Assembly: GCA_018780805.1 (NCBI GenBank)
Contig: JADMJD010000079.1
Coordinates: 10,167-74,166 of the forward strand
Length of the DNA: 64,000 nt
Source: Rubrivivax sp.
GTDB lineage: Bacteria; Pseudomonadota; Gammaproteobacteria; Burkholderiales; Burkholderiaceae_C
Reading direction: 5' to 3'
Below, piece after piece: positions 1-43,320 of the stretch. Position 1 is the first letter of the stretch; each line of letters begins with the position of its first letter. The position numbers and the translations under genes were made by a program. Under the pieces are notes generated by a model. That model saw only the letters and a list, made by a program, of their open reading frames with translations, searched no databases and had not been told where the DNA came from.

Positions 1-3000
1 GTGGTGCCGGTGCCCGTGGTCAGCACCTGCAGGCTGGCGGCGCTGATGTCCAGGTCGGTGGTGCCGCTGTCGGAGATGGTCAGCGCCTGCAGGCTGACAC
101 CGCCGGCCGTGGCCAGGCTGCCCAGGCTCAGGCTGCCGGTGGCAACCAGGCGCAGCGTGCCACTGCCGGACGTGAGTGCTGCACCGTCGGCCAGCGCCAG
201 GTTGGCGCCGCTTTGCAGATCGATCGAACCGGCGCCGCTGGTGGTGACGTCACCCGCCGCGGCCAGGCTCAGGTTGCCGGACGCCAGCAGGCTCACCGGC
301 CCGCTGGCGTTGACGGCCGCGCCCAGGCTCAGCTGCCCGGCCAGCACGTCCAGCCGCAGGCTGCCCACGGTGCTGGCACTGGCCACGGCAAGGTCGCCGC
401 TGCTGAGTGTGAGCACCGCCGCCCCCCCGGCCTGCAGGCCTTGTTGCGCGGCCAGGGCCACGGCGGCACTGCTGCCATCGGCAGCCAGGCGCTCAGCGGC
501 CACGGCCACCGCGCCCAGGCTGAGCCCGGCGTCGTCGGCCAGGAAGACCGCACCGGTGCCCGCCACCGCGGTCAGCGTGCCGGTCTGCAGTTCCAGTGCA
601 TTCGCGCCGCTGCCGATGCTGCTGCCGGCCGTCAGGCGCACCGCGGCGGCGACGACGTCCACGGCGCTGTCGCCGTCGGCATCGCTGTCCAGGATGCGGT
701 CGGCCAGCAAAGCGGCGTTGGCCGTGCCGGCGCTGATGCTGACACCGACGCCGGCCAGCGTCAGATCGCCCGCGGCACTGAGCAGCAGGTCGCCATTGTT
801 CGTGGCAAGCGTGGCGCCCAGGCTCAGGTGGCGGCCAGCCTCGGCGACGATGCTGCGGCCAGCGGTGTCGGTGCCGATGGTCGCGCTGGCCAGCACATCG
901 CGGCCCGCGACCAGGCCCAGGTGGCCGCCGGTGCTGCGCACGGCTGCGGCCAGGCTCAGGTCGGCCGCCGAACCCATGGCGGCCAGGCGCAGCGGCCCGG
1001 CGGCGAGTGCCGCACCGCCCGCGGCCAGGCCCAGGCTGCCGGTGTTCGTGAGGATCAAGGCGCCGGCACTGACGAGGTCCGACAACGGGGTGTCACCCGC
1101 CACCTCGGACACGCTGCCGTCGGCCGCGACACGGGCGATGGTGGTGGCCGCCAGGGTGTCGATCAACAGGCTGCCGGTGTTGGCCAAGTAGAGCCCGTCG
1201 GCCCCGGCGCTGGCCACGAGCTGGCCCACGGCCAGGTCCAGCGCGTCGCTGCTGCTGCCCAGGCCGCCACTGCTGGCCACCAGGCGCAGGCGGGCGGCGG
1301 TCACGTCGACGGCATCGTCACCATCGGTCACGGCCGTCGCCGACAGGCTGACCGTGCCGGTGCCGGCATCCAGCGCCGACAGGCTCAGCACGCCGGCGCT
1401 GGCCATGCGGGCATCACCACCGCCGGTGCTGGCGCTGCTGCCGGCCGCCATCGTCAGCGCGGCGCCGGCTTGCACATCCAGGTCCGCACCGCCGGTGAGC
1501 AGGCTGCCGCCGGCCGCCAAGCTGAGCGTGCCTGCGGACTGCAGCGACAGCACACCACCACCGCTGTCCACGGCCGCGGCGATGTGCACGGCGCCGGCCT
1601 GGGCGACCAGCCGCAGGGCACCACCGTCGCTGTCGACGGCCGCGTCCACGCCCAGGTCGCCGGCCAGGCTGGTCAACACCAGCGGCGCGGCGCCCAGCGC
1701 GCTCAGGCCGCTGCCGCTGACGGCCAGGGCCGACAGGCTGCCGTCGGCCGCGACGCGGTTGACGTTGAAGGCCACGCTGCCCACATTCAGGCCGTCGCTT
1801 TCGACCAGGTGAACGCCCCCCGCCGAGCTGCGGGCGGCCAAGGTGCTGACCGCGATCTCCAGCGCATTGGCCGCGCTGCCCAGACCGGCACCGGCCTGCA
1901 GCCAGACCTGGGCGGCGCTGAGGTTGATGTTGCTGTCACCCGTTGCATCGGCGTCCAGCAGCGCAGCCCCGGCGACCAGGGCGATGTCACCCCCCGTCGC
2001 CACGAGGTTGGCCACCGTCAGCGCGCCGCCGGCCTGCAGGTGCTGGCTGGCGGCGGTGCTGCCGACACCGGCGGCCATCACCAGATCGGCCGCAGCGAGC
2101 AGATCGACGCTGCTGCCGGCCACGGGCGCCGACAGCGTCAGCTGGGCCGCCGATTGCACACTGAGCGCAGCACCAGCCGTGAGGCCTGAGCCGACCTCCA
2201 GCGCACCGGCCGTCGTGGCCAGCAGCGCGGCGCCCGTGGCCGCCACCGTGGCGCCCGCACCGATCTGCAGCGCGCCCCCGCTGCGCAGCACCAGGGCCGC
2301 GCCGCTGTTCAGGCCGGCCAATGCGCTGTTGATGCGCGGGTCGGTGTCCAGCGTGCCATCGGACAACACACGCACACCGGTGGTCTGCGCCAGCGCCACC
2401 ACCTGCAGCGCATCGGCTTCGGCCAGGTACAGGCCGCCGCCCACGGCGCCCGCAGCCAGCTGCGCCACCTGCAGTTGCAACGGCACGCTCGCCGTGCCGG
2501 CGGCACCGGCCGTGGCGGCCAGGCGCAGGGCGTCCGCGGTGAACAGCGCTCCCGCGCTGCCTTGCCAGGACGCGGCCGAGAGGTTGATGTCGCCGCTGCC
2601 GGCGTTCAGGTCGTCCACCGTCGCCGCGCCGATGGCGAGCAGGCGCATGTCACCACCGGCCGTGCTGGTGGCCTGGCTGAAGGCCAGCGCTGCGCCCGCC
2701 TGCGCATCGAGCGACCCACCACCACCGACGGCGATGGCCGCCGAGGCCGTGAGGTCGCCGGTGCTGATCAGGCTCAGGCTGCCGTCCAGCGTGGCCAGCG
2801 CGGCGTCGATGTTCAGCGTGCCGGCGGCCGTGAGGCGCGCGTGGCCCACCGCGGTGGTGGCGACGGCACGGTTCAGGTCCAGCGTGCCGCTGGCGTCCAG
2901 CACCAGGGGGCCGGCGGCAGACAGGCCGGCCAGCGCGGCGTCGGCGGCCAGGGCACTGGCCGTGCCGTCCGCGGCCACGCGCTGTACCGCGGCGCCAGCC

Positions 3001-5522
3001 ACGCTGTCCACCGCCGTGAGGCCGGCCGACAGGAACACCGCGCCGCCCGCCTGCACCGCCACCGAGGCGGCATTGAAAACCAGCGCCTGCGCGCCACTGG
3101 CCACCGCGCCGCCGGCCGCGATGCGCAGCGCACCGGCCACGACATCGGTGCCCGGCGCAGCCGCCAGCGTCACGGCGCCACCCGCCTGCAGGCTGACGGT
3201 GCCGGCGCCCGCATCGGCGCGGCCAAGCTGCAGGGCTGCGCCGGCCTCGGCACGTTGGGCGCCACCTTGGGTGAGCAGGCGCACATCGGCGCCCATGCCG
3301 AGGTTGCTGCCGGCACGCAGGTCCAGCGTCTGGCCGCTGGCCGCCGCGCGCACGTCAAAGGCCGCGCCCTGCAGCAGCAAGGCCTGCGAAGCCAGCAGGC
3401 TGATGCTGCCACCCAGCGTCAGCACCTCGGCACCCAGGCTCAGGTCACCCGCCAGCGCCTGCAGCAGGATGTGGCCGCTGCCGCTGGCTTGTGCGCGCAC
3501 CGCGCCACCGACCGACAGCGTGCCGCTGCTGGCCAACACGGCGATGGCGCCATCGCCGGAACCTGCGGTGCCCAGCCCGGTGACCACGAGTGCCGTTTCG
3601 TCGACGAAGAAGATGCCGCCGCCGGCCGTGGTGCTGGCCTGCAGCGAGCCGACGGTGCCGCGCAGCGCGGCGCCTGCGGCACCCACGCCGCTGGCGGCTT
3701 CCAGGGTGACCACGGCCGCTTCACCCCGCAGGTTGGCCGTGTCGCCGGCCAGGCCGTCGAGGATGCGGCCACCGGTGGAGCGCAGTGTGATGGCGTTCGC
3801 GGCTTCGATGATGCCGATGCTCAGGTCGCCCGCGGCCTCGATCTCGACGATGCCGCTGGGCCCGGCCACGATGGTGATGCCGCTGAAATCCAGCATGCCG
3901 CCAGAGACAAAGGCCACGGTGCCGCCGTTGGACGTGACCGCCGCGCCGATGGCCAGGTTGCCGGTGCCAGCGGCGAGCGTGATGTTTGCTGCGCCGGTGG
4001 CGGTGATAGCCGCCGCTGCGGCGGTGGTCAAGGCGTCGGCGGCCGAGAGCAGCACCGTGCCGTCAACGACGTTGATCGGCGCGTTCAACACCAGATCAGA
4101 ACCGGTGCCCAACGCCTGCAGCGTGAGTGCGCCGCTGCCGGCGATGGCGATGCCGGCACCGGCGGCCAGCGTGATGCTGCCGTTGTCGGCCAGCAGCGAT
4201 ATGTCGTTGGCCCCGCTGCCGGCCGCTTGCGAAAGGCTGACCACGGTGACGGCGCCGGTGATCTGCGTGTTGTCGAAACGCGTGGTGTTGCGCGCGGTGT
4301 TGATCTCGATGGCGATGTCGCCGGCACCGCTGTTGCTGGCCTGCAAGCTGTTGGTCTCGACCGAGTCCAGCGTGATGCCGGTGGCGGCCGACACCACCAG
4401 CAGCGGCGTGCGCAAGGCTTCATCAACGCGGTTGTCAGCACCTGCATCGGCCTGCACCACGCTGCCGCCGCTGCTGACCAGGCTGACGCTGTCGGCCTCG
4501 ATCTCGTTGGCCAGGTTGATGTTGCCGCTGGCCTCCAGCGCCAGGCTGTCGCCGGGCCCCAGCCGCAGCATCGCGTTGGGGTCGCTGTAGTCGCTGACGG
4601 TGATCGTGCCGCCACGCAGCACGGCAGGGTCGCGCAAGCTCACGCCGTCCAGGGCCGTTTCGGCGCCCACCGTCATCGCGCCCTGCCCGGTCTGGCCGAT
4701 GGCGATGCTGGAGAAGCCGTCGGCGAAGGCCCGCATCTCCGCGGTTTCCAGGTTCAGCACGCCCGCGGTGGCCGCACCCACGGGCGACAGCAGCGCCGTG
4801 GCCAGGCCGGGCGTGGCAGCGCGCAGGGTCAGCAGGCCGGTGCCGCTGAACAACTCGTCGCCCATCTGCAGGTCGATCTCGTCGGCCTCGATAGTGACGT
4901 TGCCTGGTGTCGTCGCCAAGCCGAGCTGCAGTTCGACCGCCGCTTTGAACACCACCTGCGTGGCGCCAGTGATGTTGAGGCTGCCGCCGTTGCGCAGCGT
5001 GATCTGGTCGTTGAAGGTGATGATGCCGCCGGCGTCGATGGTCAGGTTGCCGTCGACTATGAGTTCGCCCCCAAAGGTGACATCTTCACCGGCCACGACC
5101 GTTAGACCGTTCAACGCGTCTCTACCGTCCCCCTCTTCAACTGCACCAAAGAATGTGACATTGCCCCCTGCCACGACCAGTAACGTGTCGGTACCCGAGG
5201 AATGACTCACGACATAGTCAGTCGCATCGTCCCCTATCCGAACGTTGCCTACAGTTGCCTCGATACGCCGATCCCCGTCTACCTCAATCGATGTCTGTAT
5301 CGAGCTGATGTTGCCCGTTGCCACAATCAGGTCTGTGCTCAAGACGAAGGGCAGCCCGCTCAACGGCACGATGACGTCCTCATCCGCCTGCGGCGCCAGC
5401 GCCATCAGGCCTGCAGTCAGCGGGTCGGCCGACAGCAGCAACCGGGCCTCCAGGGCCTCCACGCGCCAGGCTTCGCGCAGTGCGCGTTGGAGCTTCGAAG
5501 CCGGCGTGCGGTCACAGTACAA
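1..5522 (-). CDS. Second giant LEPR-XLL-leader surface/adhesin-like protein, beta-helix-like repeats; 3' end runs off the window (>1,840 aa); not in the supplied ORF track
   Basis: Translated by hand: TTG at 5522-5520, GGAGG 6 nt upstream (5533-5529). Reads MYCDRTPASKLQRALREAWRVEALEARLLLSADP... The frame was read fully over 5522-4981 and spot-checked at 3001, 1201 and 1-40 (...DISAASLQVLTTGTGT) with no stop. The track lists no minus ORF in this frame, consistent with no stop inside the window. Codons are strongly G/C-ending outside 5050-5340. Confidence 0.9.
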   Translation of the reverse strand, partial: MYCDRTPASKLQRALREAWRVEALEARLLLSADPLTAGLMALAPQADEDVIVPLSGLPFVLSTDLIVATGNISSIQTSIEVDGDRRIEATVGNVRIGDDATDYVVSHSSGTDTLLVVAGGNVTFFGAVEEGDGRDALNGLTVVAGEDVTFGGELIVDGNLTIDAGGIITFNDQITLRNGGSLNITGATQVVFKAAVELQLGLATTPGNVTIEADEIDLQMGDELFSGTGLLTLRAATPGLATALLSPVGAATAGVLNLETAEMRAFADGFSSIAIGQTGQGAMTVGAETALDGVSLRDPAVLRGGTITVSDYSDPNAMLRLGPGDSLALEASGNINLANEIEADSVSLVSSGGSVVQADAGADNRVDEALRTPLLVVSAATGITLDSVETNSLQASNSGAGDIAIEINTARNTTRFDNTQITGAVTVVSLSQAAGSGANDISLLADNGSITLAAGAGIAIAGSGALTLQALGTGSDLVLNAPINVVDGTVLLSAADALTTAAAAAITATGAANITLAAGTGNLAIGAAVTSNGGTVAFVSGGMLDFSGITIVAGPSGIVEIEAAGDLSIGIIEAANAITLRSTGGRILDGLAGDTANLRGEAAVVTLEAASGVGAAGAALRGTVGSLQASTTAGGGIFFVDETALVVTGLGTAGSGDGAIAVLASSGTLSVGGAVRAQASGSGHILLQALAGDLSLGAEVLTLGGSISLLASQALLLQGAAFDVRAAASGQTLDLRAGSNLGMGADVRLLTQGGAQRAEAGAALQLGRADAGAGTVSLQAGGAVTLAAAPGTDVVAGALRIAAGGAVASGAQALVFNAASVAVQAGGAVFLSAGLTAVDSVAGAAVQRVAADGTASALAADAALAGLSAAGPLVLDASGTLDLNRAVATTAVGHARLTAAGTLNIDAALATLDGSLSLISTGDLTASAAIAVGGGGSLDAQAGAALAFSQATSTAGGDMRLLAIGAATVDDLNAGSGDINLSAASWQGSAGALFTADALRLAATAGAAGTASVPLQLQVAQLAAGAVGGGLYLAEADALQVVALAQTTGVRVLSDGTLDTDPRINSALAGLNSGAALVLRSGGALQIGAGATVAATGAALLATTAGALEVGSGLTAGAALSVQSAAQLTLSAPVAGSSVDLLAAADLVMAAGVGSTAASQHLQAGGALTVANLVATGGDIALVAGAALLDADATGDSNINLSAAQVWLQAGAGLGSAANALEIAVSTLAARSSAGGVHLVESDGLNVGSVAFNVNRVAADGSLSALAVSGSGLSALGAAPLVLTSLAGDLGVDAAVDSDGGALRLVAQAGAVHIAAAVDSGGGVLSLQSAGTLSLAAGGSLLTGGADLDVQAGAALTMAAGSSASTGGGDARMASAGVLSLSALDAGTGTVSLSATAVTDGDDAVDVTAARLRLVASSGGLGSSSDALDLAVGQLVASAGADGLYLANTGSLLIDTLAATTIARVAADGSVSEVAGDTPLSDLVSAGALILTNTGSLGLAAGGAALAAGPLRLAAMGSAADLSLAAAVRSTGGHLGLVAGRDVLASATIGTDTAGRSIVAEAGRHLSLGATLATNNGDLLLSAAGDLTLAGVGVSISAGTANAALLADRILDSDADGDSAVDVVAAAVRLTAGSSIGSGANALELQTGTLTAVAGTGAVFLADDAGLSLGAVAVAAERLAADGSSAAVALAAQQGLQAGGAAVLTLSSGDLAVASASTVGSLRLDVLAGQLSLGAAVNASGPVSLLASGNLSLAAAGDVTTSGAGSIDLQSGANLALADGAALTSGSGTLRLVATGSLSLGSLATAGGVSLQALTISDSGTTDLDISAASLQVLTTGTGT

Positions 5523-41500: not shown

Positions 41501-43320
41501 GCGTTGCTGGCCAGCACCTCCAGGCCACCGGTGGTGGCGTCGCGCTCGAAAGCGAAGCTGCCGCTGATCTGGAAGCTGTCGGCGATGCGGGCCTGCAGGT
41601 TCTGCACCGACACGGCAGGCAGGTCCACCGCCTCCAGCGTGTTGAAGGTGTGGCTCAGCGCGCCAGCCCGCAGCACGACACCCGTCTGCACGACACCGGT
41701 GGTGTTCAGGCGCAGCGTGGTGCTGTCGGCGCTGACCTCGGCAAACCCGCCGCCCTGCACATAAAAGCCGGTGGCACGGGCTTCCAGCGCATAGGGGTTG
41801 CCGACACCGGGCAGCACCAGCAGGCCGAAATCGGCGTCGTCCAGGCCGATGGCCACACCGCCGGCCTGCAACCGCACCGCCACGTCCTGGCCCACCACCG
41901 TGAGCCCCGCGGGCGATTGTGCAAAGCCCAGCGAACCCGACAGGCTGAGCGTGGGGCCGACGTTCAGGCTCAGGTTGCCGCTGAGGCTGGCGTATTCGCC
42001 CAGGCTGCCGTCGTCGTCGAAGCTGAAGGTTTCACCACCGGCAACGATGCTCTGCGGCTGCGACGTGAGGTTGACGCCGCTGTTGTTGGGCTGGCCGTTC
42101 AGCAGGCCCAGGCCGAGCGAAAAATCCAGCGCCAGGTTGCCCACGCCCACCGACAGGTCGGACGTGCCCGCGATGTCCAGCCCGCCGGCCGTGCCACGCG
42201 CCAGCAGCCAGCCGAGGTCGGTGCCCGGCGTGGCGGCGTCGATGAAGAGCAGGCCAAAATCGATGTCGCTGAAGGACACGCCGGGCTGGGACGCGTCGTT
42301 GCGGTCGGCGCCCAGGTAGCCGCTGCCATCGGCCACGGCCACCTTCCACAAGTCGTAGGCCTGCGTGGCACCGCCGGCGTCCAGCAGCACGTTGGCGGTG
42401 TAGCCCACGGTCAGCGCGCCGGACAGGGCCAGGCCGCTGCCCAACTCCAGCTCACCTGCGAAGCTGAAGCTCTGGTTGTCCTGGAAATAGTCGAAGTTCA
42501 GCCACTCGCCGGCACGGTCCAGCAGGGCCGTGGCGTCGTTGGAGACGTTGGCGCCCAGGCTGAGCAGGTCCAGCACGAAGTCGGTGGACGAATCCAGCGT
42601 GTGCGCCACCAGTTCGAGGTTGCTGCCGGCCTGGCGCAGCTCGAAGTACAGGCCGTTGCCCGCGTCCACCAGGCCCAGGCCGGTGGCAAAACTGCCGCTG
42701 ATGGCGCCGGCCTGCAGGAACTGGAAGACCTGGCCGTCCGTCGGCGTGAAGTCGTTGATCACGGCCACCTGCAGCGTGCCGTCCAGGAAGGCCGTGCCAT
42801 CGACCACCACCTGGTCGTAACCTGTGCCAGGTGCGGCGCCGCCGATCTCGATCAGCAACGTCGAGCCGGCGCCGTTGGAAAAGTCGGCCTGGACCTCGAT
42901 CAGTCCGGGCGAATAACCCGGCGCCAAGCGGCCATCGTTGTGCAGCGCCAGATCGAACACGCCGCTGCCGGCCAAGGTCTCGTTGGCGGCGATGGTGAGC
43001 GTGCCGTCGAGGTAGCCGCTGCGGGCAGCCAGCTGCGCGGCGTCGAAGGCGGTGGCATCCACCGCAAAGGTCTGCGCCAGCGACGCCGCCGCGGCACTGC
43101 GCAGAGACGCCAGTTCGGCCGGCGGCAGGCTGGTCTGCGGTGCGTCGGGGTGGTCAGGGTCGTAGGCGGTGCTGAGGTCAGCCTGGCCGTCGCCCGGCGG
43201 CACCAGCAGCGCATGGGCGCCGCCGAAGATGGGGTCGGCCGACAGCAGGACACGCGGCTCGAGGGGCTCAAGCCGGAAGGCGTCGCGAACAGCGCTGGCC
43301 AGCCTCCTCAACGCAGTCAA
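5512..43320 (-). CDS. Giant 12,602-aa LEPR-XLL-leader secreted/surface protein (mosaic repeat adhesin-like)
   Basis: Single uninterrupted 37.8-kb ORF. TTG start with GAGG 7 nt upstream and an in-frame stop just upstream. N-terminal FRLEPLEPRVLLSADP. Contains RTX-like GGxGxD nonapeptides, DxNxDG Ca-loop motifs and several repeat families. Ends FDYWEDSLVL. Confidence 0.93.
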   Translation of the reverse strand: MTALRRLASAVRDAFRLEPLEPRVLLSADPIFGGAHALLVPPGDGQADLSTAYDPDHPDAPQTSLPPAELASLRSAAAASLAQTFAVDATAFDAAQLAARSGYLDGTLTIAANETLAGSGVFDLALHNDGRLAPGYSPGLIEVQADFSNGAGSTLLIEIGGAAPGTGYDQVVVDGTAFLDGTLQVAVINDFTPTDGQVFQFLQAGAISGSFATGLGLVDAGNGLYFELRQAGSNLELVAHTLDSSTDFVLDLLSLGANVSNDATALLDRAGEWLNFDYFQDNQSFSFAGELELGSGLALSGALTVGYTANVLLDAGGATQAYDLWKVAVADGSGYLGADRNDASQPGVSFSDIDFGLLFIDAATPGTDLGWLLARGTAGGLDIAGTSDLSVGVGNLALDFSLGLGLLNGQPNNSGVNLTSQPQSIVAGGETFSFDDDGSLGEYASLSGNLSLNVGPTLSLSGSLGFAQSPAGLTVVGQDVAVRLQAGGVAIGLDDADFGLLVLPGVGNPYALEARATGFYVQGGGFAEVSADSTTLRLNTTGVVQTGVVLRAGALSHTFNTLEAVDLPAVSVQNLQARIADSFQISGSFAFERDATTGGLEVLASNASVWLAAGEVLAGVSNAGVALQMDATTGAISLIEAQGTASVVAGDAFSATATAQLRWNASGVDASNRAMEVVDQTFTFAADFGVGLQQLELTGANLVVGDFVSAQGNFAIRRDGGNVTLAGGEVVAADWLTLGASGVGLTAGIPDGPGLVLGGVEFALVLASARADTTRSWTGLQASAGSVSLTGVADVTVQGSGLSVALNRAGRLGDAVIDFDATGLVIPTGDANGFDLDLKTALTRVSGTLEIDLFGFVQIDGSFGFERTTADLTLANAEVVADADLLTIGASGMSGFAGLNGETPEALGFTLDELNFALALWTDPNNPARGWTSLQATAGSVSFSGIEGFTLRADELALALNQASTLNDSVADYSAGATELQVLTGADPISLGLDGALGELLQASGTITVDAFGFFRVTGSLALEKSSGSVELSDGSSVAVDRLLLGGQGLSAFAGINGQSEEAKVGLELNGVRFALALFGEQGGALRSWTSLEADVGSASFVGVDGLTVGVTDVHVELNQIDGAATGPVVAYGADATVLTVVTGPGAQDSLTLGMAGGDGELLRVSAEVEIDAFGFFQVGGSFGFEKRDGQVTLADNPDTAGVDESAAPVEVSLLLVGAANASAFAGINGGEPDAIGLTLGNIGFGLAMVSERLPANAGVGTPARSWTSVQSQGGTAAFAGVEGLTLAARDLLLNINQAAADGSVIDYAAGATTLAVPTGTGTSLALDMDGSRGPLLEVAAELEIDLFGFFQVEGDFALVRDTRSVTLAGGEVVAVDSLTVGASGVDAFAGVNGHSAERLGLSLTGVEFGLALLSARADPARGWTSLQADVGDASFVGVDGLTVGVQDLRVELNQAGVLGDAVVDYTATAFSVATGASSSLDLAMDGADGDLLRATGTLDLDIFGFVQINGDFGFEKRSADVTLAGGEQVAVDLLAVGASNVSAFAGLNGGSDDRVGLALSGVEFGLALMSSSTTPTRSWTSLQASVGSASFVGVDGLTVTVEDLALEINQAGTLGDAVVDYTASPLTLPTGTSSDLTLAMDGDDGELLRATGTLTIDLFGFVMLDGDFGIEKRDTTVTLADGNDVDVGLLTIGANNVSAFAGLNGGTDDALGLALADTSFALALASSRAEPTRSWTSLQANVGSAGLVGIDGFALQADTVSLEINQAGRAGDVVIDHAATALEVLTGPSSSIVLDMDGADGELLRASGELTLDAFGFLQLDGGFAVEKKSSDLTLSDGSTAAVDLLTIGGGNVNAFAGLNGGTADELGLKLEDVNFAIALMSDPVGTPTPRQFMGLQAEAGSVSLVGIDGFEVGATDLVVQINRGVAGVGGAADLVVDFEAAPLAVLTGPDGTLDLTLEGSLGQVTRAAGTVTLDVFGFVMLEGDFAFQQSSAALVLADGEQVQAQLLTVGGSGIQAFVGINGGTDDELGVKVENAGFAVALMTDSGNPARKWTAVQAEASSVSLVGIDGLTLSGNNLTVAINRAAVLGDQVVDFADGATDLAVRTGPDSEFQLDMAGADGPSLKAAGNLQLDVFGFVQLSGDFAIEQRSQAVVTAEGETLQADLLTIGASSVNAFAGLNGGTDDALGLQMDDVGFAVALVSEQAGAGVATPRKWTVLQATAGSVGLVGIDGFVLNANNLDVQVNQAGLPGQAVLDFVDGATVLNVSTGPDAEDVVAFGMDGAEGELIRAVGEIEIDAFGFFQVDGGFAVEKKSGSVVLANGNTVAVDVLTIGASNVNAFAGVNGGTDDAIGLQLTGIDVGVALFTSQATPAAKWTTVQANADSVGFVGISDLLPTVQDLRVELNQSARPADGVIDFAAQNFEVATGPDSSLLLAIDGGVGQVIRAEGQITLQLAEFAYLSGRIGFEKYTPTAPITLRTPTGVATQVTPTSMLAITGRDIDIFVGWADGGVDTSRTFAEQAGNLYGFGVEGADFGLLLTKAGGQSYTTLKARLETVALYGFDPDDFQLSATGFTLEINRADPTGKSIDFLASYGEDGLALGFEGQVVLDFEAGDRIGVFAEEATLTISEFLYFRGGIGFQKADYANTLRTGPGQIVSQARGFSIGGSDIDAFVGYADGGIAPDQPFADQADNLFGFGIEGLTFGFLSVRDGGGRTFQSLKASADTVAIYGFDPSDFQLSALDLRIEYNSGIAGPGGLVQALDFTATGGGELAIPTGGDDVVLDFKGERLGLFAGLATLSISNFVFVQGAFGFQKSTITGLKNQLGLPLLNTRGFSVGASNVDVFVGYAENGIDRSKTFSEQADSLFGIGIEDISFGLLMAKAGGVSYTALQASSANAAIYGIDPDDFELSVQGVQVTLNTVTGSPYAIDFAASGGYAVPTGADPVVLDMSGPVVGAQLTGATLRIADFVEIQGNFGFLKGEASGIGVTGPLGVGFTDVKARSIEIGATDVNAFVGINGGSDDAIGLVIEDLDFGLGLFTTVFDPLSPDNALVPAGTRFTALKAAAGQIAFVGFEDFVELSLQDLAVDINLSSNPLYIADFTQGGTTEGYEIATGGEPLLLDFTNSLISATVGQATANIAGILSVQGGLAFQKRVVEDVTFHGPGIELQTNADALVIAGQDVYAFAGINGPYRTDSNNDGVIDDNDAPNDDAIGFAIDDLDFAFAMMSPLLPGGVTIPGNFFALSASAGLAGLVGTDPFLTAQATDVVLEFNGAFVGKIPLPAAYVDFSTMDGGGLAIPIGSDAEALRIDFDSNSLRIGMTATLGLFDLFTISESFDFEFELPDTGSLIPSISLSKLTGFLPDTLPGFDFLDGALDFVKDIQLSIGFNPDIGLTLFGSISLPDLSLNIGDFFYLNGDFQLNLGDTFTGSMYTGLPKELSLIETLLGDEAQQIIDLLKSVGQLSDDYSRLGGVTFNGLSFGASDVNVFIGVGGPDWDRPFSEQDDLVGFGLQDVSLGLGVFKAQLTGIQTQNFYSLTLEAAEVGTYGFGDLLTIRATDVTVEVNSGGKLFGGLMRSTADYTTVKTLDANGNEVTGYAIKTGGDPVTLSFSGPEIIGIDIGLAEIAVADFLFLRGSLAFRQGEVYDVTVNLGGLATLAEDLGLENGEFPLQVVAMTLGGANLSGFAGIGGPYRFGEDADGDGLLDQINEGAAGLVVDDVDFGFALFTPAIGKAIPGLEQYTPRFMATKAYVGQAGLVGIDPDLLSIRAEDIEVNINSFYVPGVPPPVNLAIQLFGPPSIDFPSSPSFKDFSEDLNANDVLDAGEDRNQNNLIDRAGFALPAGGNNMIFIDFDEEIVQAKVGYAEINLGGFIQLSASMAFTKRGSETVRLSNGDETIVTSLAIGINDAYGFVGFGGYWQDSNGNGRIEETDSPDTSAVGVVIEDLDVGVIVAKELVISGSGVSVGVYLAAYADVDRVGLVGVPEVTLEGSLQLEVNSGIRFFLGAGQFTTDPLTGAVAQNSDVEVSFGFEVIDFSAATWTNSQGVISPGYGIETGNPDEPIVLMYDELFLRIFGEAELDVAGLVLLTGVIDLRLSASQGLQVFADVNARIGSASAPILQTQATGLLVIRDGIAMRLEISTQLDFGDVAELNAELELTMNSFGTDIIYEVPEAFLDKVDFPVYEIPATPPGKPNWTGPYVALTGQGDLNLLDGLLVMQGDFAVIVSTSGAEIGITAQIDLPVLEPLSVTGTLGIVPAGLYGSLEIGGGGAEGKILDAGVFSISGRFLLQINTTAESQQVRGRDAQGNVFDANGQPVIVTLTPQMLRLSGAASVAIGPISLEGKVDLLIDRNGFQAALNVTLDLGDFGELAFDGAAAIGTDANGDAFFALRVATNMEFGVSSLNVKAAAILQINTSSLDYTTLAGQVIAGDTLFDLALDGGIKLLAFDITFGGRVSIVEEVFRLEFNGGLNFFNALTIDIGGFIQSDGQFEITGSASINIFLGPLHLEAGMSLTLSSKPRFAAKAYGSLDFEIDFGFFEIDFTIAGFYGEIDITPAAAYLAARVTVMGITVGGSYIWRFGDPPDISHLDADGTLYLHMGDQSGRYGSGDLYDDITLEAFNIDQDGNTLTVRSLGETDTYNASQVRRIVGYGGSGNDFIYVGPSVQAELDFDGQAGNDKFLILGGASSSQIRGGAGKDAFVGGSSNGLRFWGGDGDDSFIGGDGSEIVDMGAGNNTMVGNGGQDVFTVGAGENTVAGGAGNDTVYLSAGGLLTVLGGEGFDRVIVAPVSTTAPIQLSTAKLELQTSAFQRTVQFAGVDRIEVTDQNTGGTTLVTADNTTWGDTDLVLDAAGVVDIRNARLVAPDAMFSVSATGIHGEFDTRLAELSVLLRGTPDGAFGDIVVREDDSLTIVSDGRAGGGLATATGGVDVRLAGREALFSHDSGLISTGPGRSLLLVADDIDLRAGNDTVRGDGTLTIRTEQARQGYRIGSAGQSEFGFDFSDGGRTGYMELGMRDLSALRDGFAAVTIGHRGLGVEMAIGDVADSIIRGFSFSARFDDTTLLQADRVTVVGNVRASGTLDIEAGLLEVQRQNIHDLLGAASVSVQARVLNLSVDEQLIVSGTLSGEDRLNIVVDGTTGLGALVSYGDGANSFTSDTSALIRTLNDNATLNIVTSKSIYNAGTVALNGARSVMDIQAGTGFTLLEGSALVAEAADGRISVAADRHVHLNPGSAIISGGRFVTGSAPVITGPNAVLEIRTEGEMLLGGVITSAGQMTLEAGEVQDDLADYFDRLPGVELAATADASTVASILAGLGAGNVSAALRALLADQSLALGDSAGVVAVGDYRPFSELRPLQQFQIAQSLGYTVFADGAFYNDVSGVIREALIAGPVVGYDPAAVAWGDAGRPANGTPFADLNGAQKVAVAQHLGYTTYTGGVYYKADAGPQEEALRTGFLQGFSADYSNDLIDWAGAGVAAPAGDPSFAQITTAQKLVVANSIGYRFDWGTISSERWIGNSTVDYASVPRSVWIDASTANFSVLIEAGVWGQAGVPGPGTAYADLTSAQKAVVDANFSFEPAAGTDYDDLTGDQREVVDNLVRPGLDVLFKDLTAAQQAVVVAYIDGLYAAGKGDQVTFYNYDGPSGEKLVTGFTEGRVTQYRNSDIFWGDAGAPADNASFESLTADQKRVVAHALGYEVIDGTAFYTADAPEGLQLTLGFTAGGADYDIRTIDWGGVPAPAADASFEDLTPTQRDVVLAMLGYTEVDRQLFLNPSAPTPDKQVVDDLQEGVNGDFLINDIEWGRVAKPALGTAFAEMTRAQQDVVLATLGYERWSGLVYEKPGAGSERYRLSFTEGSDYTNENVVWSLLEIPDAGTSFDDMTAAQQYRVLSQSGFAEYNLPVFYKAGADQPVRTSFVQGLEYTNAGAGTAEPNRWLIDDGANRYLVYAYDETLDGVIDEIRVQELHPLFGQRGAGFLLTGTVNTLQDDADFVVSTVDDIIVRGNFNLLGAGSDLVLESQRWVYWEGQANVNGDITLIGRGAPSLGQPGEGLSVYVHPSSTLNTTAPGADIHIEGARDVHLLGALVAGGSISDKNIQWAGPDSTVTLIAGEQIRIDTAVAASQAVLLSTTGAPGADDEGFGLVLGSAGGLTAAGLTSDGSGGRVEADIVGGITLAGRIIAGGTVTQVFNDDTGRLESESIAWSDEASTVRLAAQGQLWLGGLTRAVSGATVEVGATVLSNMHIALIGGANADGIGVLIPGAARVIVSDPDGDILVQAQQDAVVNGWLVAGGELVDAYDAAGFYLGSTLRNFAGNSSITITAEQQVRLGRDVVAGRTIDVRGGYEAPVNDPDDPFASYGMVLGGNVSLSTWMDDSTILLSAVGDLAVLPPAWTQELIADGFAELANGRLTADAALQISVVMGSWTATATVLVTAASTQDNQGLASLRDDLQAAILAASFVVSATQGSPALNTPATLTSADRPTVRLDEGRLLLTGSRAFSIAAANEGGAERLGFTQVGSTPTGGALASARAYAIDAIGVGSVVQLGRAGAAGGEIVISNAIRAHTAIEMYASTTDAGAPAVRLTASGLLETLSGGMRLTPYGAAVFEGELIARGSDADIVITAADTLELRGKLTAQRNIIISAGTVQAAGEVSLRTVGTSSLSTLDAGARIVLTGLNDVVIDSEVGTGSPGLERLEIGSQTGTLTIAATSGQLETGGLIELYGVNVDVAGTVRSLGATAASYDDEVILRAEQDLLLHGDFEFAGSVLATAGDDIEAWNTSLSAQATGQRLTMRAGDAIEIGARNATPNAALLEADALVRLTAGGRITVGDAGQLYSTGENSRIELEAQTLRISGALRAGADAADADSSWAWSGRGAVIDLAAQRDIVIGNSGSGIGGELAATGTIALSAGTSAAGMGIDMTTGSRIVADASGDGRWPLAADQLGDGLVSLLADGDIRLMGFVRAGDEGPADAAYADAGADVAVQSRAQVRIGGLVSAADRLEVFGGTDETGIAIVVDTLVLVGGQRQSGGTLDTDAGGDILLGAIDSILIEGVVGQLSGEGDLGDQGKVSTLVIESIAGDLTLRRDINVADSVEITSGNLSLLNGSHVFAVADGSTARLEARTRLYVAPDDLVSDPVRVTIVQADRLVHLMAPDIQIDGFVEAKGADGRLLLSAANSVLIGGTLGAGRRIDVHVGVDLSRGRDALEAVDSNGVSAIGAADVFGGDITILGRGLLDTDGDLRLVAGGDITLDAGTAVGPERELKIQITTTQNQDVEIVTGYRQEAVGTVDVPVVTWETTEVTEQVGTELVKAGSEYWTMNVTLSQIGYYNPKTNSFREVLIEGLDYSNDGRNNLPSINWSNAGDEFNPGRQVTGAGIPSGDYTNQNYRPFQALNDAQRWAVMNSLGYKPLYDFGYNTAVKHVTLNGSVTATAATPTWDDPQNVDKIYFIDISGWRDKFVLMPKGAQEDILAVATNDQARFLVNDPSRDGESTGGTWKYANQIDEDDPNDPNDSFELKGELVGRYKDDGKVQYTQSASFLRNSGNIDDPNLQDPNRVSIDGDNSAAYWTVNYGGGGQRYYEITGQSVAGLDGDFSDDVVRDPNWAWNPGSYGNGSDSPYTGARGQNFGQTHAIYAPNNYLGALDTVTGTTQSLVLEGGNPTTRTPSWNGVSGAVGAVQNNGNAIFTAWEHGVGSGFGNTWIGNVSWVGSGPNDEHSSIQFYSTTYRVDGYQHIDYGGVRDPYYGTGNVVRNDDYSSYKAWGYHYETYNDYRYTWTSTYANVYDQRIQLSYTLTTQSQDIVDYRPVYQTTVQEVMVTQYQSVTVWQDVPNIVIQSQLVTTVQEIDAGARNYSSSDASLNAGNILLDAGASVRLSGRISASDFLQVNAGSEVALRGELLSDDPGAARRATELLGNRIELHSGIVTRVDDSTVLGGTQVGTQGAASILLTTDGDLLVGGQIMADSGVLGSVTLRADGEIGLSGAITASSITIEAGAVTRDANNNIVDGRGAGGIDIDSDSRLAALAGDLTLMAGPYAGSIRLDGAALSASGTVSMTAESGQILQTFFTDADGDVVTDDFGNPAINGLVSGAVLRAQAETGIVLATAVQRIEWARLSGAGNIDLVNQVVVPVGQVATSADYQLTLDQVRVADGFIRIKSFSSVTATLLRADGSTDNNDIFLSVYQAGGFRSDLLLGQVLTNAQRGDIFIKAEGEVRSSLGGVIQAEELSVVSGRQDDDGTAGHIGIVDINSDVSVLLLQTVAFAQVNIQQTDTRLLVRSAVVADGSFRLTGQGVVELGSVRVSSNRDQETAGTPTAEIEVEAAGDLLVRFVSAGVFYNNAGEAPQVRLPDGSFAAPTVVSSAGDVTLRSTGGSVLESVLDDGVDVVADRLVIEADTGVIGLEIAANTLWVETSGGNIQLFESDGALESQLGLDVLRATSANTLAGTTRVELQAVNTLRVGSIASDDNFIEGLVRGNSIRLASTDASVIVPFAMDNGDDALQYTRGVAFVAGETVQLYQFFEADEWMEYRAQDYFVFGSGVGTGIDADTTRMLPTVLAADTLILETGGTLSITGSISANRRLELIAGESVLITGLDDNTPAQILHKASYFGGTSAGSNIDVLVITARGDAASRSGRDYDGDGEFSSVLHETTEGANDYNNDGDTQDTLSEIDLDLDLNNDGDKLDLLIEGGQQIDYNGDGDFDDVIEEWAGGANNPNANTDTGDILLRLGSLPVDSFELRASGNIRLDVATSLELRGFVGGLTGFDAARNVRLDILGELKLFGGIVSAQTPADGQPVPEGTGALVVRATTLSADAASVFIADRLDILTTGSIQANTLINTLVAVSTGTGNITIKEAGELTVELISARTGSISVEAGGSVNVDQIVNFTGGHGISVRANGLLSIDSIEAGSSDGAQKVAGSTVYLDANDGNASTVDIVEWLDRGDNAEEQGAADVYAYSLTVLGNAVTKRLDGAGDRGTGTDLDLRYSGSLTTGETEITEEGVINGSLGVQTAEVDAVSTAGIDRAQSSRVVFGGLATDGMVYSVTLAGQTFRQTISVAGDFATALEFDAMLAGLEAQISAGGPYTVSVGSDDALTITATTPNQAFTVAAEVREFVTTPLDTADVVENDGATPLVAAGFVRDERRTVTLADDIPVNAGKTYSVVVNSSTYTASFGETLGGFTVADARTLVAVLGLKIEAGQDLQAGERTVHLSAVTVTNGAVYSITIAGTTFQYEAFLTAEGGDSAASIATALAGLVDASAPYNAYAQGDVVVVTGGVGNSTSITGSTGITVDSTPRVLRLQAEVGNTSFTIGTISATDSVDAPVQVQNADNNQPDIWRVTFSPNPLPNVSYSINLEGQVYTVNSGNGPTNASLANLFADAMASDPTANATVDGSGRLVLTGVADDVDFNVSATATITKSSGVGTTARVQDPGTNSTQISQFQFKDAPLGVADVVSVTVNASVFSYTVAQGDGWDEVIDGLIDAINDDTSLAVTAAAGVPDRAVRLTADQQNTGFSVSGMSVLDAIDRTAAGASVSTSTPTPAGILSRQISTLDFSAFVGDLATGDLFTLTVGTTAFEIELGVDAAVDWAGLLQEMADLATGTGEVTAAFDANARTLTLTAVNNNDPFAVGAGSRSAGLATEVPLDGDSVLILPDRDPGTVAYRALGGSLSVVLLQTHAGDTITLRADESLVVVDALNTGSTGIVTLSAGNSLTLGDTVTAQRLNVAAGDDLNLQTRVGVLEVTLDSDNLPSGQFSDFALEQNLAREDLDITRLVMDGGNVTITVDGNLDLSGLTGSVGRMTLIATGSITLSGTALIGELVLQAGTTVQADIDATTLDARAGGAVTIVDATGLTITRLESTGAAIDITAGLDLLIEAPLATLGGAAISLRSTAGLIDLRQALTTVGGAVTVVAGNGLFMNELADITTLGGNVLLNAGAGGLQMNASTYVDARVSDPDPNDSIVPGGTLTLLATDSILLGKLRTTSTADVVITTGGVVDVGEGDIDIVAPLARLVITSDAGIGGTIGIGDDGNPLEVQVRSLWLENSGGGDISIEEVDGLDIESIRQNAEGQNSNGPTPQTSAVRIVTRSGDLTVLGAEDGGSGVVSTGGPIVLYAGQGSLFIGADVVSGGGNITLTAEAGDLVLADGVNANDSSDDIGGAILLRAVQGSILTDLAAAQWRGFDSADGFAASLEWALSKGRFEVFANSGLVLAANLTPDEEVFQGISNGTVLRRAGGAFVETVGGQLTLTALNQVGEAVEGFRYSPLAIFVNAGSVAAVSSERDTVAVVAAGAVSLGTGGSSGSRAGSTDVISLAGKQVIDAAVDADGEDVGVAADDVDILAPMRSAGGTLSFRTIAADGSIVLGSLSGGNGARVFSMADGSAMHLDATDMANLRDGFAQLVFGANGNAQVVMVMTADGSAITMRDDVVFFTNGDGGHVMIGAHFLAPSLTIFGSGDTTAVVADVTATAGDVTVLDSIRVDGERVITAQGGDILLGGANTHYLGGDSAGRDTLTLLASAGNIRVASRIGGGDEGSDALQLLRVQGAGDVSFDQDIVVDGDLIIDATGLVTFNGSITLLNGGDLIIRGATQILLRGGVNLQGTAADGSAGDILLEADEIDLSMSEQQLAGSGLLTLRSTTVSQGIAVASPAGVATNGVLNLDMADIRTFGDGFSRIVIGHQGNDGHALAGSGAVTVGARVDADSLTFRDSVALFGSTIAVADYSQAAAVLRLGAGATLTLDAVSVITIANQIEADAVYLVSATSSVRQIDAAADGLLGEAIRTAALTVDTLEGASLGSLEAGTLDAVNRGNGDFFFSQLAARDTLRFSSAALDGTLTVLRLAQLSAQGSGNIDLRAAAGGLVVDAAGSGVWTAGSGSITLATAGAAEQAPDLLLAQTLQTTSGGLTLELAGALSTTGAGRITLAGNGALNITTGGDVHIGADVVAAGGLVTITAGGSLVMDDGTTVSSLGSTSTDARRVVMESVGDMRLSIVSADQSLALTSTAGALRDGLTGDAANLRAPTARLAAATGVGEAMAALRTTLQTVGASNSSGNSGIGGIFLDETDALSFVGGGLAADGGRIVVTLRTGDLTVNQSITSSAATDGGVQLQVLGAGAHILLQANVVSDSGDLRLLATGDVQLAAGQRAQTKNAASLLEVVAGGQLLMAPDARLVSAGGAQRIEAMGGVLIGQFSAGTGTVSVSTGGAIVGADTGGVVHVAAGQVSLVAEGGIGSGTAAIETAVNVLAASSDTGSIFLAEGNGLVVGTVGSVSGATSGVDGAIVISNGNTHEGRFVVDADVVAAGSGNILLAANSAAPAVPGDIDINATVNAGTGAISIVAEGALLVSATGRVLTQGNTLDLRAGGSITLDAAAVLASGGGDVRLAAGTDLTVGGITAGELSLVAGGAVLSSSTVTATQLRVQAGGAVTVQLDTDVLAVSAGGAVSLTTAGDLLIGSAGPISVAVVLADGTLAAEALTDAVLGGLQAGGALTLQVAGDVLASGGGALDLAASGLSGSVGGSLQAVRDGDLVLGDLSVGGDLSLVLTSGDLSLAADAVVATAGGSIVLQVQAGDLTMAADSSLRSGGGAIQLQATGDISLGGVDAAVATITVTAGGHIGDAGGDGVNLRGQALILSAGAGIGAWGDGLRTEAGSLQAAAGSGALVLSDVDALTVTGASADGAVQLASGGTLSITGAVTAGTDLSLSGAALDIGAPLQAGGAIALAADGALQVAAAVNAGGSLTLSGVDILIDAALVAAGDLAITGSTLTLNGDLQAAGDLHLTALGDLLATGHLAAGADLLASASTIALGGDMQVGGRLVLTATQALTLGGEVAVAGDAAINASTLELAGTLDTAGALRLQAESSLRIGGTVLSTGTLVATSGGSLTLDGSASARGSSHLLLASAGALQINGSAQTQAGHLSASAGGDLQLNGLVGTGDAAGTVVLSAGGSLRFGSDGLLATLGDALVEAAADIQIGRVTTPGDLMLVAAGWIIGSSGQRVAAEGLLMQAGQGIGSSAARVETQAGTVSARAGAGGIWLQEADAIRVHDVAVRVHRVGSDGVAGAALDFLQSDLITTSGNGSIGLRTLDGSIDLLDGSTPSDGRAITAHGSGHIELSAGGDGAVLDVRGDDITQEGPVQIDSDLRIQGDFVVRAGTGEGTGDGAILIDGAIDGNPGGAPDRLELHADGAPVVVTGAIGATTPLDGLLIDGATDVTLAQVTLNGNLVIEASGVVTLTGPIVLNGGSLTITGASRIVLGDVVLASGDLVLSADALQFNGSVRGSADAQVLLTPTTAGATLTVGAAGDGLVLTAGTLAALQGFGSLQLGDASSGALVIDTATLSSLVLDQLNATGSRIELSGRGSVDASVVLTSRGAISMAPGALLATGNHELTLCAAGDLAIAELDTGSAGLVLVSGGRISDADRDSATNVRAAWLVMRGLGPVLGAGQSVAMDAIDVEANRVDIDADGGLILRDSTADGRTRYNLLKDGVLHQQIEAQGPSTRAASGGDLSSGDAAAAAAWLNALRPLAELRDSDTRARSALAALDGDRALPAGSAAAAYLATLTADPLPGATIDPAMAIDAGLSVEAFGLASRLAQGWVLGSASQQPAATGLGSLGSDRFDYWEDSLVL
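7720..8350 (-). repeat. Short-period (~19-21 aa) beta-helix coil repeats
   Basis: Run of L-x-[IL]-x-G-x-[VL]-x-A-[GA]-G-x-L-x-L units (GGTLSITGAVTAGTDLSL, GALQVAAAVNAGGSLTL, TLTLNGDLQAAGDLHL, TLELAGTLDTAGALRL). Confidence 0.7.
14491..16308 (-). repeat. Six ~85-100-aa beta-beta-alpha-beta repeats
   Basis: Shared pattern Y/F-S-V-T-[LVI]-x-G-x-x-[FY]-x-[YF]...[helix: A-x-x-L-x-x-x-I]...L-T-L-T-A, e.g. YSVTLAGQTF...LTITAT, VSVTVNASVFSY...LIDAIN...VRLTAD, FTLTVGTTAF...LTLTAV. Confidence 0.7.
17269..17472 (-). repeat. Four clustered D-x-[ND]-x-D-G-[DE] Ca-binding loop motifs
   Basis: DYDGDGE, DYNNDGD, DLNNDGD and DYNGDGD within about 68 aa. Confidence 0.75.
25640..27310 (-). repeat. About 10 copies of a W-G-x-x-x-x-P...F-x-x-L-T-x-x-Q-x-x-V-V-x-x-x-L-G-Y repeat
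   Basis: Examples: FADLNGAQKVAVAQHLGY, FESLTADQKRVVAHALGY, FEDLTPTQRDVVLAMLGY, FAEMTRAQQDVVLATLGY. An isolated copy (FQALNDAQRWAVMNSLGY) lies at 21142-21204. Confidence 0.85.
29040..29400 (-). repeat. RTX/haemolysin-type Ca-binding nonapeptide repeats (internal)
   Basis: GGSGNDFIY, GQAGNDKFL, GGAGKDAFV, GGDGDDSFI, GNGGQDVFT, GGAGNDTVY plus degenerate copies. Confidence 0.8.
31300..41230 (-). repeat. Tandem array of about 19 beta-rich repeats of 154-180+ aa in the giant protein
   Basis: The marker [RK]-[SGK]-W-T-x-[LV]-Q-A-x-x-G-S recurs at 40990, 40528, 40054, 39520, 39049, 38581, 38113, 37639, 37159, 36673 and 36193 (period mostly 462-486 nt). Diverged copies lie at 35680, 35170, 34657, 34144 (510-513 nt), 33598, 32725, 32095 and 31429. 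Confidence 0.9.
42600..43020 (-). other. N-terminal beta-rich domain of the giant protein (LAPGYSPG...GYDQVVVDGTAFLDGTL)
   Basis: The G-x-LAPGxSPG...GYDQ-x-x-V-x-G-x-A-x-LDGTL pattern resembles the beta-helix cap domains I recall from autotransporter-passenger and PEP-CTERM-type proteins; recognised by eye. Confidence 0.55.

Follow-up and report, generated by a model that had tools for sequence, protein, structure and literature searches.

How might a protein of more than twelve thousand residues be exported when its N-terminus carries neither a Sec nor a Tat signal? This question is raised by a 64,000-nucleotide stretch of Rubrivivax sp. DNA (contig JADMJD010000079.1, positions 10,167 to 74,166; hereafter, the window), where two genes for giant proteins, gene 1 and gene 2, lie beside a cluster of genes for a TolC-like channel and its predicted partners. 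Both giants begin with the same short leader, which contains the LEPR-XLL motif, and the cluster encodes a predicted fusion of a RiPP (ribosomally synthesized and post-translationally modified peptide) recognition element (RRE), an M50 protease and an HlyD-type periplasmic adaptor. The motif was already known, and the two window proteins are new members of a curated family; what is new is its link to a cassette made of the RRE-M50-HlyD fusion, a further HlyD-type protein and TolC. From the gene neighbourhood and from domain analogy, we lean towards the reading that LEPR-XLL, together with about 12 residues that follow it, is a Sec-independent leader that marks giant surface or extracellular cargo for the adjacent envelope-spanning exporter.

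Two giant proteins begin with the same leader

A preliminary description of this DNA had placed a shared 24-residue N-terminal leader at 43320-43231 and 5421-5522, and these positions match codons 1-30 of gene 1 and codons 1-34 of gene 2, respectively (Table 1). The leader was confirmed with the NCBIfam model NF012209 (LEPR-XLL domain; curated cut-off, 17 bits), which matched residues 15-32 of the gene 1 protein with 33.9 bits and residues 19-36 of the gene 2 protein with 31.5 bits, both above the cut-off, and no other open reading frame (ORF) of the window was similar. In agreement, our own leader hidden Markov model (HMM), built from 18 sequences with both window leaders included, scored 53.2 bits on gene 1 and 44.9 bits on gene 2, and the next best window ORF in the six frames reached 6.6 bits. 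Identical residues were found at 15 of the 24 positions, and 50 of the 72 underlying bases agreed. When the codons were compared, nine were identical, six differed synonymously and nine non-synonymously, and this therefore points to conservation at the protein level. The window has a G+C content of 70%, and the third-position G+C (GC3) of gene 1 is 0.90. The two genes are in tandem: a Shine-Dalgarno sequence, GGGAGGA, lies 5 nt upstream of the gene 2 start codon, TTG 5522, and this start region overlaps the stop codon TGA of gene 1 (5514-5512).

It had also been stated that the proteins diverge at once after the SADP of the leader, and this had to be corrected. SADP is followed by some 12 residues of weaker conservation, [VIL]-x-G-[AG]-x-x-A, which recur family-wide and extend the conserved part of the gene 1 leader to about position 43195. 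A G-[AGP] pair is often, not universally, placed 9-10 residues past the Arg of LEPR (PIFGGAHA, PVLGAAQA). Moreover, the bodies are related, with residues 66-1758 of the gene 2 protein aligning to residues 10443-12094 of the gene 1 protein at 35% identity (E 1.6e-131). In window coordinates, these paralogous stretches are 1-5324 and 7039-11994. By its make-up, gene 2 resembles a fusion of a leader with a duplicate of the gene 1 C-terminal part. Since its body matches only this late part of gene 1, one leader heads different downstream sequences, and judged by these alignments it behaves as a transferable module.

A Sec or Tat signal was rejected on the hydrophobicity profile of both N-termini, in line with what had been described. 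No uninterrupted hydrophobic h-region was found in the first 80 residues of either protein; the highest 19-residue Kyte-Doolittle mean there was 1.22 for gene 1 and 1.9 for gene 2, where the stretch contains D and P. The statement that a twin-arginine signal is missing holds in substance: gene 1 has LRRLAS, followed by charged residues and no hydrophobic core, and gene 2 has no RR pair.

The gene 1 protein is acidic, rich in G, A, L, V, D, T and S, and has a single Cys. A Pfam scan in pieces gave no match at E<=1e-3 over its 12,602 residues or over the 1,840 residues of the gene 2 protein. Only five GGxGxD motifs were present in gene 1, all internal and clustered near residues 4645-4775. Its C-terminus reads ...FDYWEDSLVL (last 10 codons, 5515-5544 on the minus strand), and a motif F[DE]YW.[DE].L.[LV] followed by the stop codon is common to giants beside the cassette in several loci of Burkholderiales and gammaproteobacteria (L014, L015, L020, L022 and L024). 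The motif was not found in alphaproteobacterial giants beside the same cassette, and this clade-specific C-terminus may be a second signal.

The LEPR-XLL family and its known relatives

When a leader profile of 44 sequences was searched against 1.84 billion cluster representatives, it returned 1,423 protein clusters from many phyla at E<=1e-3, and all of the top 150 matches started within the first 70 residues. Many leader proteins already bear the name 'LEPR-XLL domain-containing protein' in public annotation. The NF012209 domain (LEPR-8K) agrees with the window leaders in its N-terminal position and giant host proteins, and differs in being a named motif only, with no attached function or partner system. 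Among searchable papers it receives passing mentions only, as in a Vibrio paper, and its function is not established. The same had been said of the motif in the preliminary description, and both database and searchable literature bear this out.

A related motif of planctomycetes, RRLxxExLExRxLLA (Studholme et al. 2004), is represented by Pfam PF07595 (Planc_extracel, Planctomycete extracellular) and, as cited in PMC8567305, was proposed as a novel export signal. It shares the core ExLExRxLL and an N-terminal position on surface proteins. Gene 1 scored 13.9 bits with this model, against a gathering cut-off of 25.5, and gene 2 gave no match; the window motif is thus related to PF07595 by sequence and does not qualify as a member. 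A further difference is that in planctomycetes the motif occurs on dozens of mostly ordinary-sized proteins per genome, 52 proteins with the planctomycete N-terminal motif being counted in a proteomics study of Tuwongella (PMC8567305). Planctomycetota also hold cassette homologues and adjacent leaders.

In Chlorobium chlorochromatii, the LEPRxLL motif is carried by proteins of 36,806 and 20,647 aa, and their transfer to the partner cell was observed experimentally (Kuzyk et al., bioRxiv 10.64898/2026.03.19.712371). According to the same study, sapC and tolC are in the operon of the giants, a horizontally acquired secA (Cag_1676) is co-expressed with them, and a horizontally acquired hlyD (Cag_1507) is named as their likely partner; the authors noted that the giants lack known transport signals and proposed C-terminus-first export via SapC, TolC and HlyD. 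These proteins (Cag_663/Cag_665) resemble those of the window in the N-terminal motif, giant size, sapC-tolC genes and exit from the cell, and the study differs from ours in that it mentions no M50 or RRE component. Cag_1676 and Cag_1507 may correspond to the SecA-like and HlyD-type cassette genes, at a site apart from the giants.

The neighbouring cassette encodes a candidate leader receptor and protease

The most informative gene of the window cluster encodes the fusion protein, which is organized as an RRE/PqqD-like domain (residues 1-105), an M50 domain (about 150-440) and an HlyD/MacA-like adaptor (about 445-715). Residues 22-410 matched the daptide leader-removing M50 protease model NF041824 with 163.7 bits, the equivalog cut-off being 300, and with 27.5 bits the Pfam M50 model passed its cut-off of 27.2. 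Predicted transmembrane segments lie on either side of the two M50 motifs (HExxH at 209-213; NPLLRFD at 305-311), and H209, E210, H213, N305, P306 and D311 were invariant in 17 homologues including the window protein. The C-terminal 270 or so residues have a fold like that of the MacA and MexA adaptors, as judged by an AlphaFold model and Foldseek.

As the full-length Foldseek search was dominated by the adaptor part, the N-terminal domain was modelled separately. The AlphaFold model of residues 1-112 (predicted local distance difference test score, 82.5) has a three-strand sheet and three helices in a winged-helix arrangement, and the best Foldseek matches were TbiB1 and TfuB1, two lasso-peptide RREs whose solved structures contain the bound leader peptide (probability 1.0; target-normalised template modelling score 0.65-0.67). 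Pfam PqqD matched the N-terminal domain in 8 of the 17 fusion homologues, and the Prokaryotic Genome Annotation Pipeline (PGAP) names several of them 'PqqD family peptide modification chaperone'. A sequence search of the PDB with the RRE profile returned only chance matches to polycystin (E 1.7). No curated family name exists for the M50 fusion or for the SecA-like protein encoded after it. Annotations of the fusion vary (L087, L088, L093, L094) among 'PqqD family protein', 'site-2 protease family protein', 'biotin/lipoyl-binding protein' and 'HlyD family...'; for the SecA-like protein, the same records give 'prepilin peptidase', 'DEAD/DEAH box helicase', 'preprotein translocase subunit SecA' and 'hypothetical protein'.

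Upstream of the fusion gene lie the genes for a long HlyD-type adaptor, whose N-terminal 360 or so residues match no known domain and which was always paired with the M50 fusion in the compared loci, a short adaptor with the N-terminus MLPRLLLIALLASPGATLA, a TolC-like channel and a SapC family protein. Family scans of the cluster neighbours revealed no ATP-binding cassette (ABC) transporter, all window ORFs of 150 aa or more are without a Walker A motif, and the sole LSGG[QEM] match in such ORFs is inside gene 1. Nor was an ABC gene annotated or called within any cassette examined. A classical type 1 secretion system was rejected, as the window has no ABC transporter. The family scans of the cluster gave no match to a C39 peptidase, and no RiPP modification enzyme was recognisable among the neighbouring genes scanned.

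Leader-bearing giants lie beside the cassette

The fusion protein was then used as query in a scan with one genome per species. At least 590 relatives were present, and the best 80 loci were analyzed; they included Burkholderiales, Gammaproteobacteria, Desulfobacterales, Verrucomicrobiota, Planctomycetota, Anaerolineales, Acidobacteriota and Nitrospira, and at least seven phyla have the conserved cassette core. Long HlyD, M50 fusion and SecA-like followed each other in this order in every locus whose contig reached far enough, and TolC and the short adaptor usually adjoin this core, as does SapC in proteobacteria. A giant gene adjoins the cassette in about 42 of the 48 informative loci. In 18 loci, the leader was detected at 38-59 bits (noise <=7.9) at the start of a huge ORF, which in 17 of them was cut by the end of the locus. 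About 24 more loci had a giant ORF with its 3' end abutting the cassette, and the leaders of these giants were out of reach because their 5' ends fall beyond the fetched flank. Only two loci had no giant ORF although 3 kb of flank or more was available on either side; the remaining loci were too short.

Annotated plasmids and chromids gave the same picture, with a giant gene (3,472 to 12,918 aa) beside the cassette in all eight records. Each of the seven readable N-termini carried the leader: those of Pseudosulfitobacter (12,918 aa), Pontibrevibacter (10,603 aa), Methylosinus (8,847 aa), Thalassospira (4,033 aa), Sinorhizobium (about 9,000 aa), Pseudohalocynthiibacter (about 11,600 aa) and Rhodobacteraceae M382 (3,472 aa). 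Six of them pass NF012209 with 25.8-35.4 bits, and the assignment in Pontibrevibacter rests on the PGAP name; one leader-bearing giant of this set is named only 'LamG-like' by PGAP. The eighth record, from Ensifer, has the layout of Sinorhizobium and is outside the seven N-termini counted. Every readable giant N-terminus, from the 18 genome loci and the seven plasmid or chromid records, thus had the leader. The giants beside the cassette differ from each other in body and C-terminus, so that the leader is the only feature found common to all cargo, and among orthologous giants it is the best conserved block.

In alphaproteobacterial cassettes (L088, L092, L093, L095), a DUF3467 gene of about 95-115 aa lies between the giant and the long HlyD gene. 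The window cluster has no DUF3467 gene, and that of Thalassospira has one and no SecA-like gene.

A cassette subtype without the SecA-like gene

A second cassette subtype, with a more distant relative of the fusion protein and without the SecA-like gene, was found in Burkholderia anthina, Azospirillum, Kosakonia and 28 plasmids of E. coli, Citrobacter and Hafnia. Its operon encodes a large DUF4347 or Ig-like protein, TolC, an adaptor, an HlyD protein of about 450 aa and the M50-HlyD protein. Three cargo N-termini carried variant leaders, ALEPRFMFDAAG, SLEPRMLFDGA and ALESRQLFDGA, which were just below the NF012209 cut-off or gave no match; the cargo N-terminus of Burkholderia anthina was outside the fetched stretch and is not among the three. 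From the comparison of the subtypes, it follows that the constant partners of the leader are the M50 fusion, a second HlyD-type protein, the short adaptor and TolC, and the SecA-like protein appears, by gene content, to be optional in the cassette.

The variant leader is identical on all 28 enterobacterial plasmids (RFALESRQLFDGAA) and heads a protein of about 4,457 aa, for which the annotation is Ig-like, DUF4347 or cadherin-like. In the one record examined (E. coli NZ_CP104683.1; L100/L101), the giant is followed by TolC, adaptor, HlyD and M50-HlyD, and there is no SecA-like gene. This plasmid system is apparently a mobile surface-protein module.

Proposed pathway

Taken with the domain content of the cassette, the conserved neighbourhood suggests the following sequence of events. 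In the cytoplasm, the PqqD-like RRE domain of the fusion would bind the leader, and the chain would be fed into an inner-membrane assembly of the fusion and the long HlyD-type protein. The periplasmic adaptor domains of both, with the short adaptor, would dock onto the TolC-like channel, and the leader would be removed by the M50 intramembrane protease, either while transport is under way or once it is complete. In clades with an intact SecA-like ATPase, the preprotein-binding domain of this protein would hold the chain, and the ATPase would provide the energy. The role given to M50 follows the example of bacteriocin exporters, in which double-glycine leaders are cut off by a C39 domain. We infer by analogy the binding of the leader by the RRE, the M50 cleavage and its site, the direction of transport and the energy source; the last would apply to clades with an intact SecA-like protein, and the window clade and the SecA-less subtype are without that candidate.

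The preliminary description had regarded the motif as a targeting leader for the adjacent exporter. This survived in part: the adjacency in about 42 of 48 loci, the 18 plus seven readable leaders and the RRE-M50 protein on the cassette argue for it, but the exporter is not a classical one and many leaders are unlinked. The pathway outlined here would give that idea a concrete receptor, the RRE of the fusion. More tentatively, leader and cassette may constitute an ABC-independent secretion pathway for the largest bacterial proteins, with an N-terminal leader read by an RRE and a built-in intramembrane protease. Its parts, which we propose with equal caution, would be the RRE-M50-HlyD protein, the long HlyD-type protein, the short adaptor and TolC, with SecA-like, SapC or DUF3467 proteins as optional components. 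As a whole, this would be a tripartite TolC-dependent exporter combined with leader-peptide recognition, with a fair chance of being a distinct secretion pathway. No description of such an exporter (SecA-like, M50, HlyD, SapC, DUF3467 and giant cargo) was found in the searchable literature.

The LEPR-XLL/Planctomycete motif has been an orphan since 2004 and heads some of the largest proteins in biology. Probably, the leader is an export tag for some of the largest bacterial proteins, and a conserved partner machine with leader-binding and leader-cutting domains makes the question of their export open to simple experiments. As versions of the system are present on 28 enterobacterial plasmids and in cultured Thalassospira, Pseudosulfitobacter and Azospirillum, tractable models exist. 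If the proposal is true, a tripartite exporter that works without an ABC transporter would be added to those known, and a leader-recognition module of RiPP biosynthesis would have been reused for giant proteins.

Evidence against the leader reading and alternative explanations

Several observations weigh against a leader read by the adjacent exporter, and a number of them came from the comparison that started from the leader. The preliminary description had held its idea to be wrong if genomes with such leaders routinely lack the cluster. Run as adjacency in loci only, not as whole-genome presence, this comparison went partly each way: the cassette was next door in two of eight leader-fragment look-ups (L081, L082), a cassette marker was seen on the visible side in 24 of 80 metagenome leader loci, and the rest showed none. 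In the other six look-ups no cassette was in view, with some giants running off the contig. The 80 metagenome loci all scored at least 22 bits with our own HMM, 75 of them at least 25 bits; of the 24 with a marker, 10 had the M50 fusion, the long HlyD or the SecA-like gene, and 14 more had SapC beside the leader. When only the 24 loci with at least 8 kb upstream were considered, a marker was present in 8 and missing in 16. Some of the missing adjacency is to be expected, since cassettes are often placed past the 3' end of the giant; when the cassette was the starting point, over half of the linked giants had the leader at the end far from it. One third of leader loci with a visible cassette is about what frequent linkage predicts. 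A tblastn search of 72,556 plasmids with the consensus leader gave two matches, both on replicons with the full cassette, which is present on only about nine of these plasmid records; tblastn has low power with such short leaders, and the Kosakonia variant gave one self-match only. A protein word-index search with the leader profile returned only fragments of less than 90 aa at contig ends. Unlinked cargo is certainly common in planctomycetes (PMC8567305).

The energy source is a further difficulty. The family consensus of the SecA-like protein keeps GEGKTL, TxNDYLAxRD, DEADSxLxDEAxTPLIIS, TNMAGRG and motif VI, and the relatives, of about 615-700 aa, also match the SecA preprotein-binding domain. 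In the window protein, nucleotide-binding domain 1 (NBD1), the preprotein-binding domain and NBD2 are present, and the C-terminal scaffold and wing domains of SecA are absent; its matches to SecA in the PDB covered NBD1, the preprotein-binding domain and the start of NBD2 only, and it scored 73 bits against SecA/SecA2 equivalog cut-offs of 725-814. However, the window protein and those of loci L001-L006 are without Walker A, Walker B and motifs Ia, V and VI, all fully retained in the rest of the family, and have degenerate sequences such as KDRRL (for GEGKT) and EPLDR. Because all motor motifs are degenerate, this protein cannot be the motor in the window clade. The ORF is nevertheless intact and conserved, with 227-266 bits among clade members, and from its sequence the protein looks like a pseudo-ATPase retained for a non-catalytic role. 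The gene is also absent from one subtype-1 cluster, that of Thalassospira, and from all subtype-2 clusters, and no inner-membrane energiser is evident in the window. Two further points concern recognition: the Foldseek E-values for TbiB1 and TfuB1 are weak, about 0.02, and the RRE domain of the window fusion itself misses Pfam PqqD at E 0.1. Finally, the clade-specific C-terminal motif could be the real secretion signal.

This last point leads to the main rival, in which export is C-terminus-first, the RRE retains the N-terminus at the cell, and cleavage by M50 releases the protein, so that the leader serves as a tether. We consider it unlikely, with some real weight nonetheless. Such an arrangement has an analogy in LapA-type adhesins, whose N-terminal retention module is removed by LapG; neither lapG nor lapD turned up in the general family scans of the window neighbours, in which no specific search for them was made. 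The TolC and HlyD-type parts resemble a type 1 system, the motif F[DE]YW.[DE].L.L sits at the extreme C-terminus, where type 1 signals lie, and an RRE with a protease fits regulated release as well as leader removal; C-terminus-first export is also what the Chlorobium authors favour (bioRxiv 10.64898/2026.03.19.712371). Yet alphaproteobacterial giants next to this cassette do not have the C-terminal motif, no ABC transporter is there to read a C-terminal signal, and the SecA family, whose preprotein-binding domain is retained here, works from the N-terminus. It is somewhat less likely still that the leader is a general signal read by other machinery (an atypical Sec/SecA route or surface sorting) and that the cassette serves the giants in another way, for instance in outer-membrane passage or quality control. 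The adjacency would then reflect shared cargo, and most leader-first loci indeed have no cassette within reach; about 50 ordinary-sized planctomycete proteins per genome carry a related motif (PMC8567305), and the stretch after the motif is weakly hydrophobic, with the mean of 1.9 in gene 2. Against this, gene 1, with a maximum of 1.22, has no Sec-like core, and the divergent leader variant co-occurs with the divergent cassette subtype. Moreover, a protease with a fused RRE requires some peptide to bind, and no peptide of the neighbouring cargo other than the leader is conserved.

That the leaders are alike through tandem duplication or chance, with no function of their own, is highly improbable. 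The two genes are paralogous over 1,700 residues, as duplication would have it, but the paralogous bodies are not collinear with the leaders, the motif is N-terminal in 1,423 clusters of many phyla and passes a curated model, and 6 of the 15 shared residues use different codons in the two genes. Chance or mere paralogy was excluded by this family spread, the non-collinear bodies and the codon differences.

Comparison with known secretion systems

The classical type 1 signal is C-terminal and uncleaved, and RTX repeats often come before it. The type 1 systems (HlyB-HlyD-TolC) and their giant RTX adhesins share with the window cluster and its giants a TolC-family channel, HlyD-family adaptors and a huge, acidic, Cys-poor and repetitive cargo without a Sec signal. 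They differ in that the window system has no ABC transporter, an N-terminal signal, three adaptor-type proteins, and M50, RRE and SecA-like components. With the C39/NHLP peptidase exporters, the common points are HlyD-type adaptors, weak TIGR03794 matches and a leader that would be cut by the exporter's own protease; here, in contrast, the protease is M50 instead of C39, there is no ABC domain, and the cargo has 10^3 to 10^4 residues and is not a peptide. In comparison with SecA and SecA2, the SecA-like family keeps the motor motifs and the preprotein-binding domain, but it is shorter (about 615-700 aa) and without scaffold and wing, and the window copy has lost all ATPase motifs. The RREs (PqqD, TbiB1, TfuB1) share the fold of fusion residues 1-112; unlike these and the daptide M50 protease, the module is here fused to a periplasmic adaptor, in a TolC operon.

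Other features of the window

The positions of the giant genes, their leaders and the exporter cluster are collected in Table 1. The listed TTG codons of gene 1 and sapC are only 69 bp apart (43321-43389). As the SapC domain starts only at residue 40, the true start codon of sapC may lie further into the listed ORF, which would enlarge the divergent promoter region. The true start of the SecA-like gene may be the ATG at 50621. The Lcl_C lipoprotein gene comes after the SecA-like gene in many Burkholderiales loci and before the cassette in others; judged by this recurrence, it is a conserved accessory gene in Burkholderiales.

Table 1. Positions of the giant genes, their leaders and the cassette genes in the window
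Feature	Position	Strand	Basis and remarks
Gene 1, giant protein, 12,602 aa	5512..43320	-	TTG start; ORF list
Gene 2, second giant, >1,840 aa, cut by left window end	1..5522	-	TTG start at 5522
Gene 1 leader, codons 1-30, MTALRRLASAVRDAFRLEPLEPRVLLSADP	43231..43320	-	translation, NF012209, own HMM
Gene 2 leader, codons 1-34, MYCDRTPASKLQRALREAWRVEALEARLLLSADP	5421..5522	-	translation, NF012209, own HMM
SapC family protein	43390..44211	+	Pfam PF07277, 240 bits; divergent from gene 1
TolC-like outer membrane factor, Sec signal peptide	44183..45751	+	Pfam OEP; TIGR01844 below cut-off; hydrophobic N-terminus
Short periplasmic adaptor, 264 aa, Sec signal peptide	45756..46550	+	HlyD_3, HlyD_D23; TIGR01730, 110.7 bits
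Long HlyD-type adaptor, 633 aa	46555..48456	+	family scans
RRE-M50-HlyD fusion, 715 aa	48474..50621	+	Pfam, NCBIfam, AlphaFold, Foldseek
SecA-like protein, 615 aa	50564..52411	+	Pfam SecA_DEAD; PDB SecA matches; family alignment
Lcl_C-domain lipoprotein, lipobox LAAC	52443..53882	+	Pfam; no LEPR leader

Among public reads, a single metatranscriptome contained 14% of the sampled window words; the window itself comes from groundwater metagenomes. Further along the plus strand, at 56108-61570, are genes for a peptidase S51 (cyanophycinase family), a cyanophycin synthetase (985 aa, 1,097 bits) and a shorter cyanophycin-synthetase-like protein (639 aa), which together look like a cyanophycin metabolism cluster unrelated to the leader.

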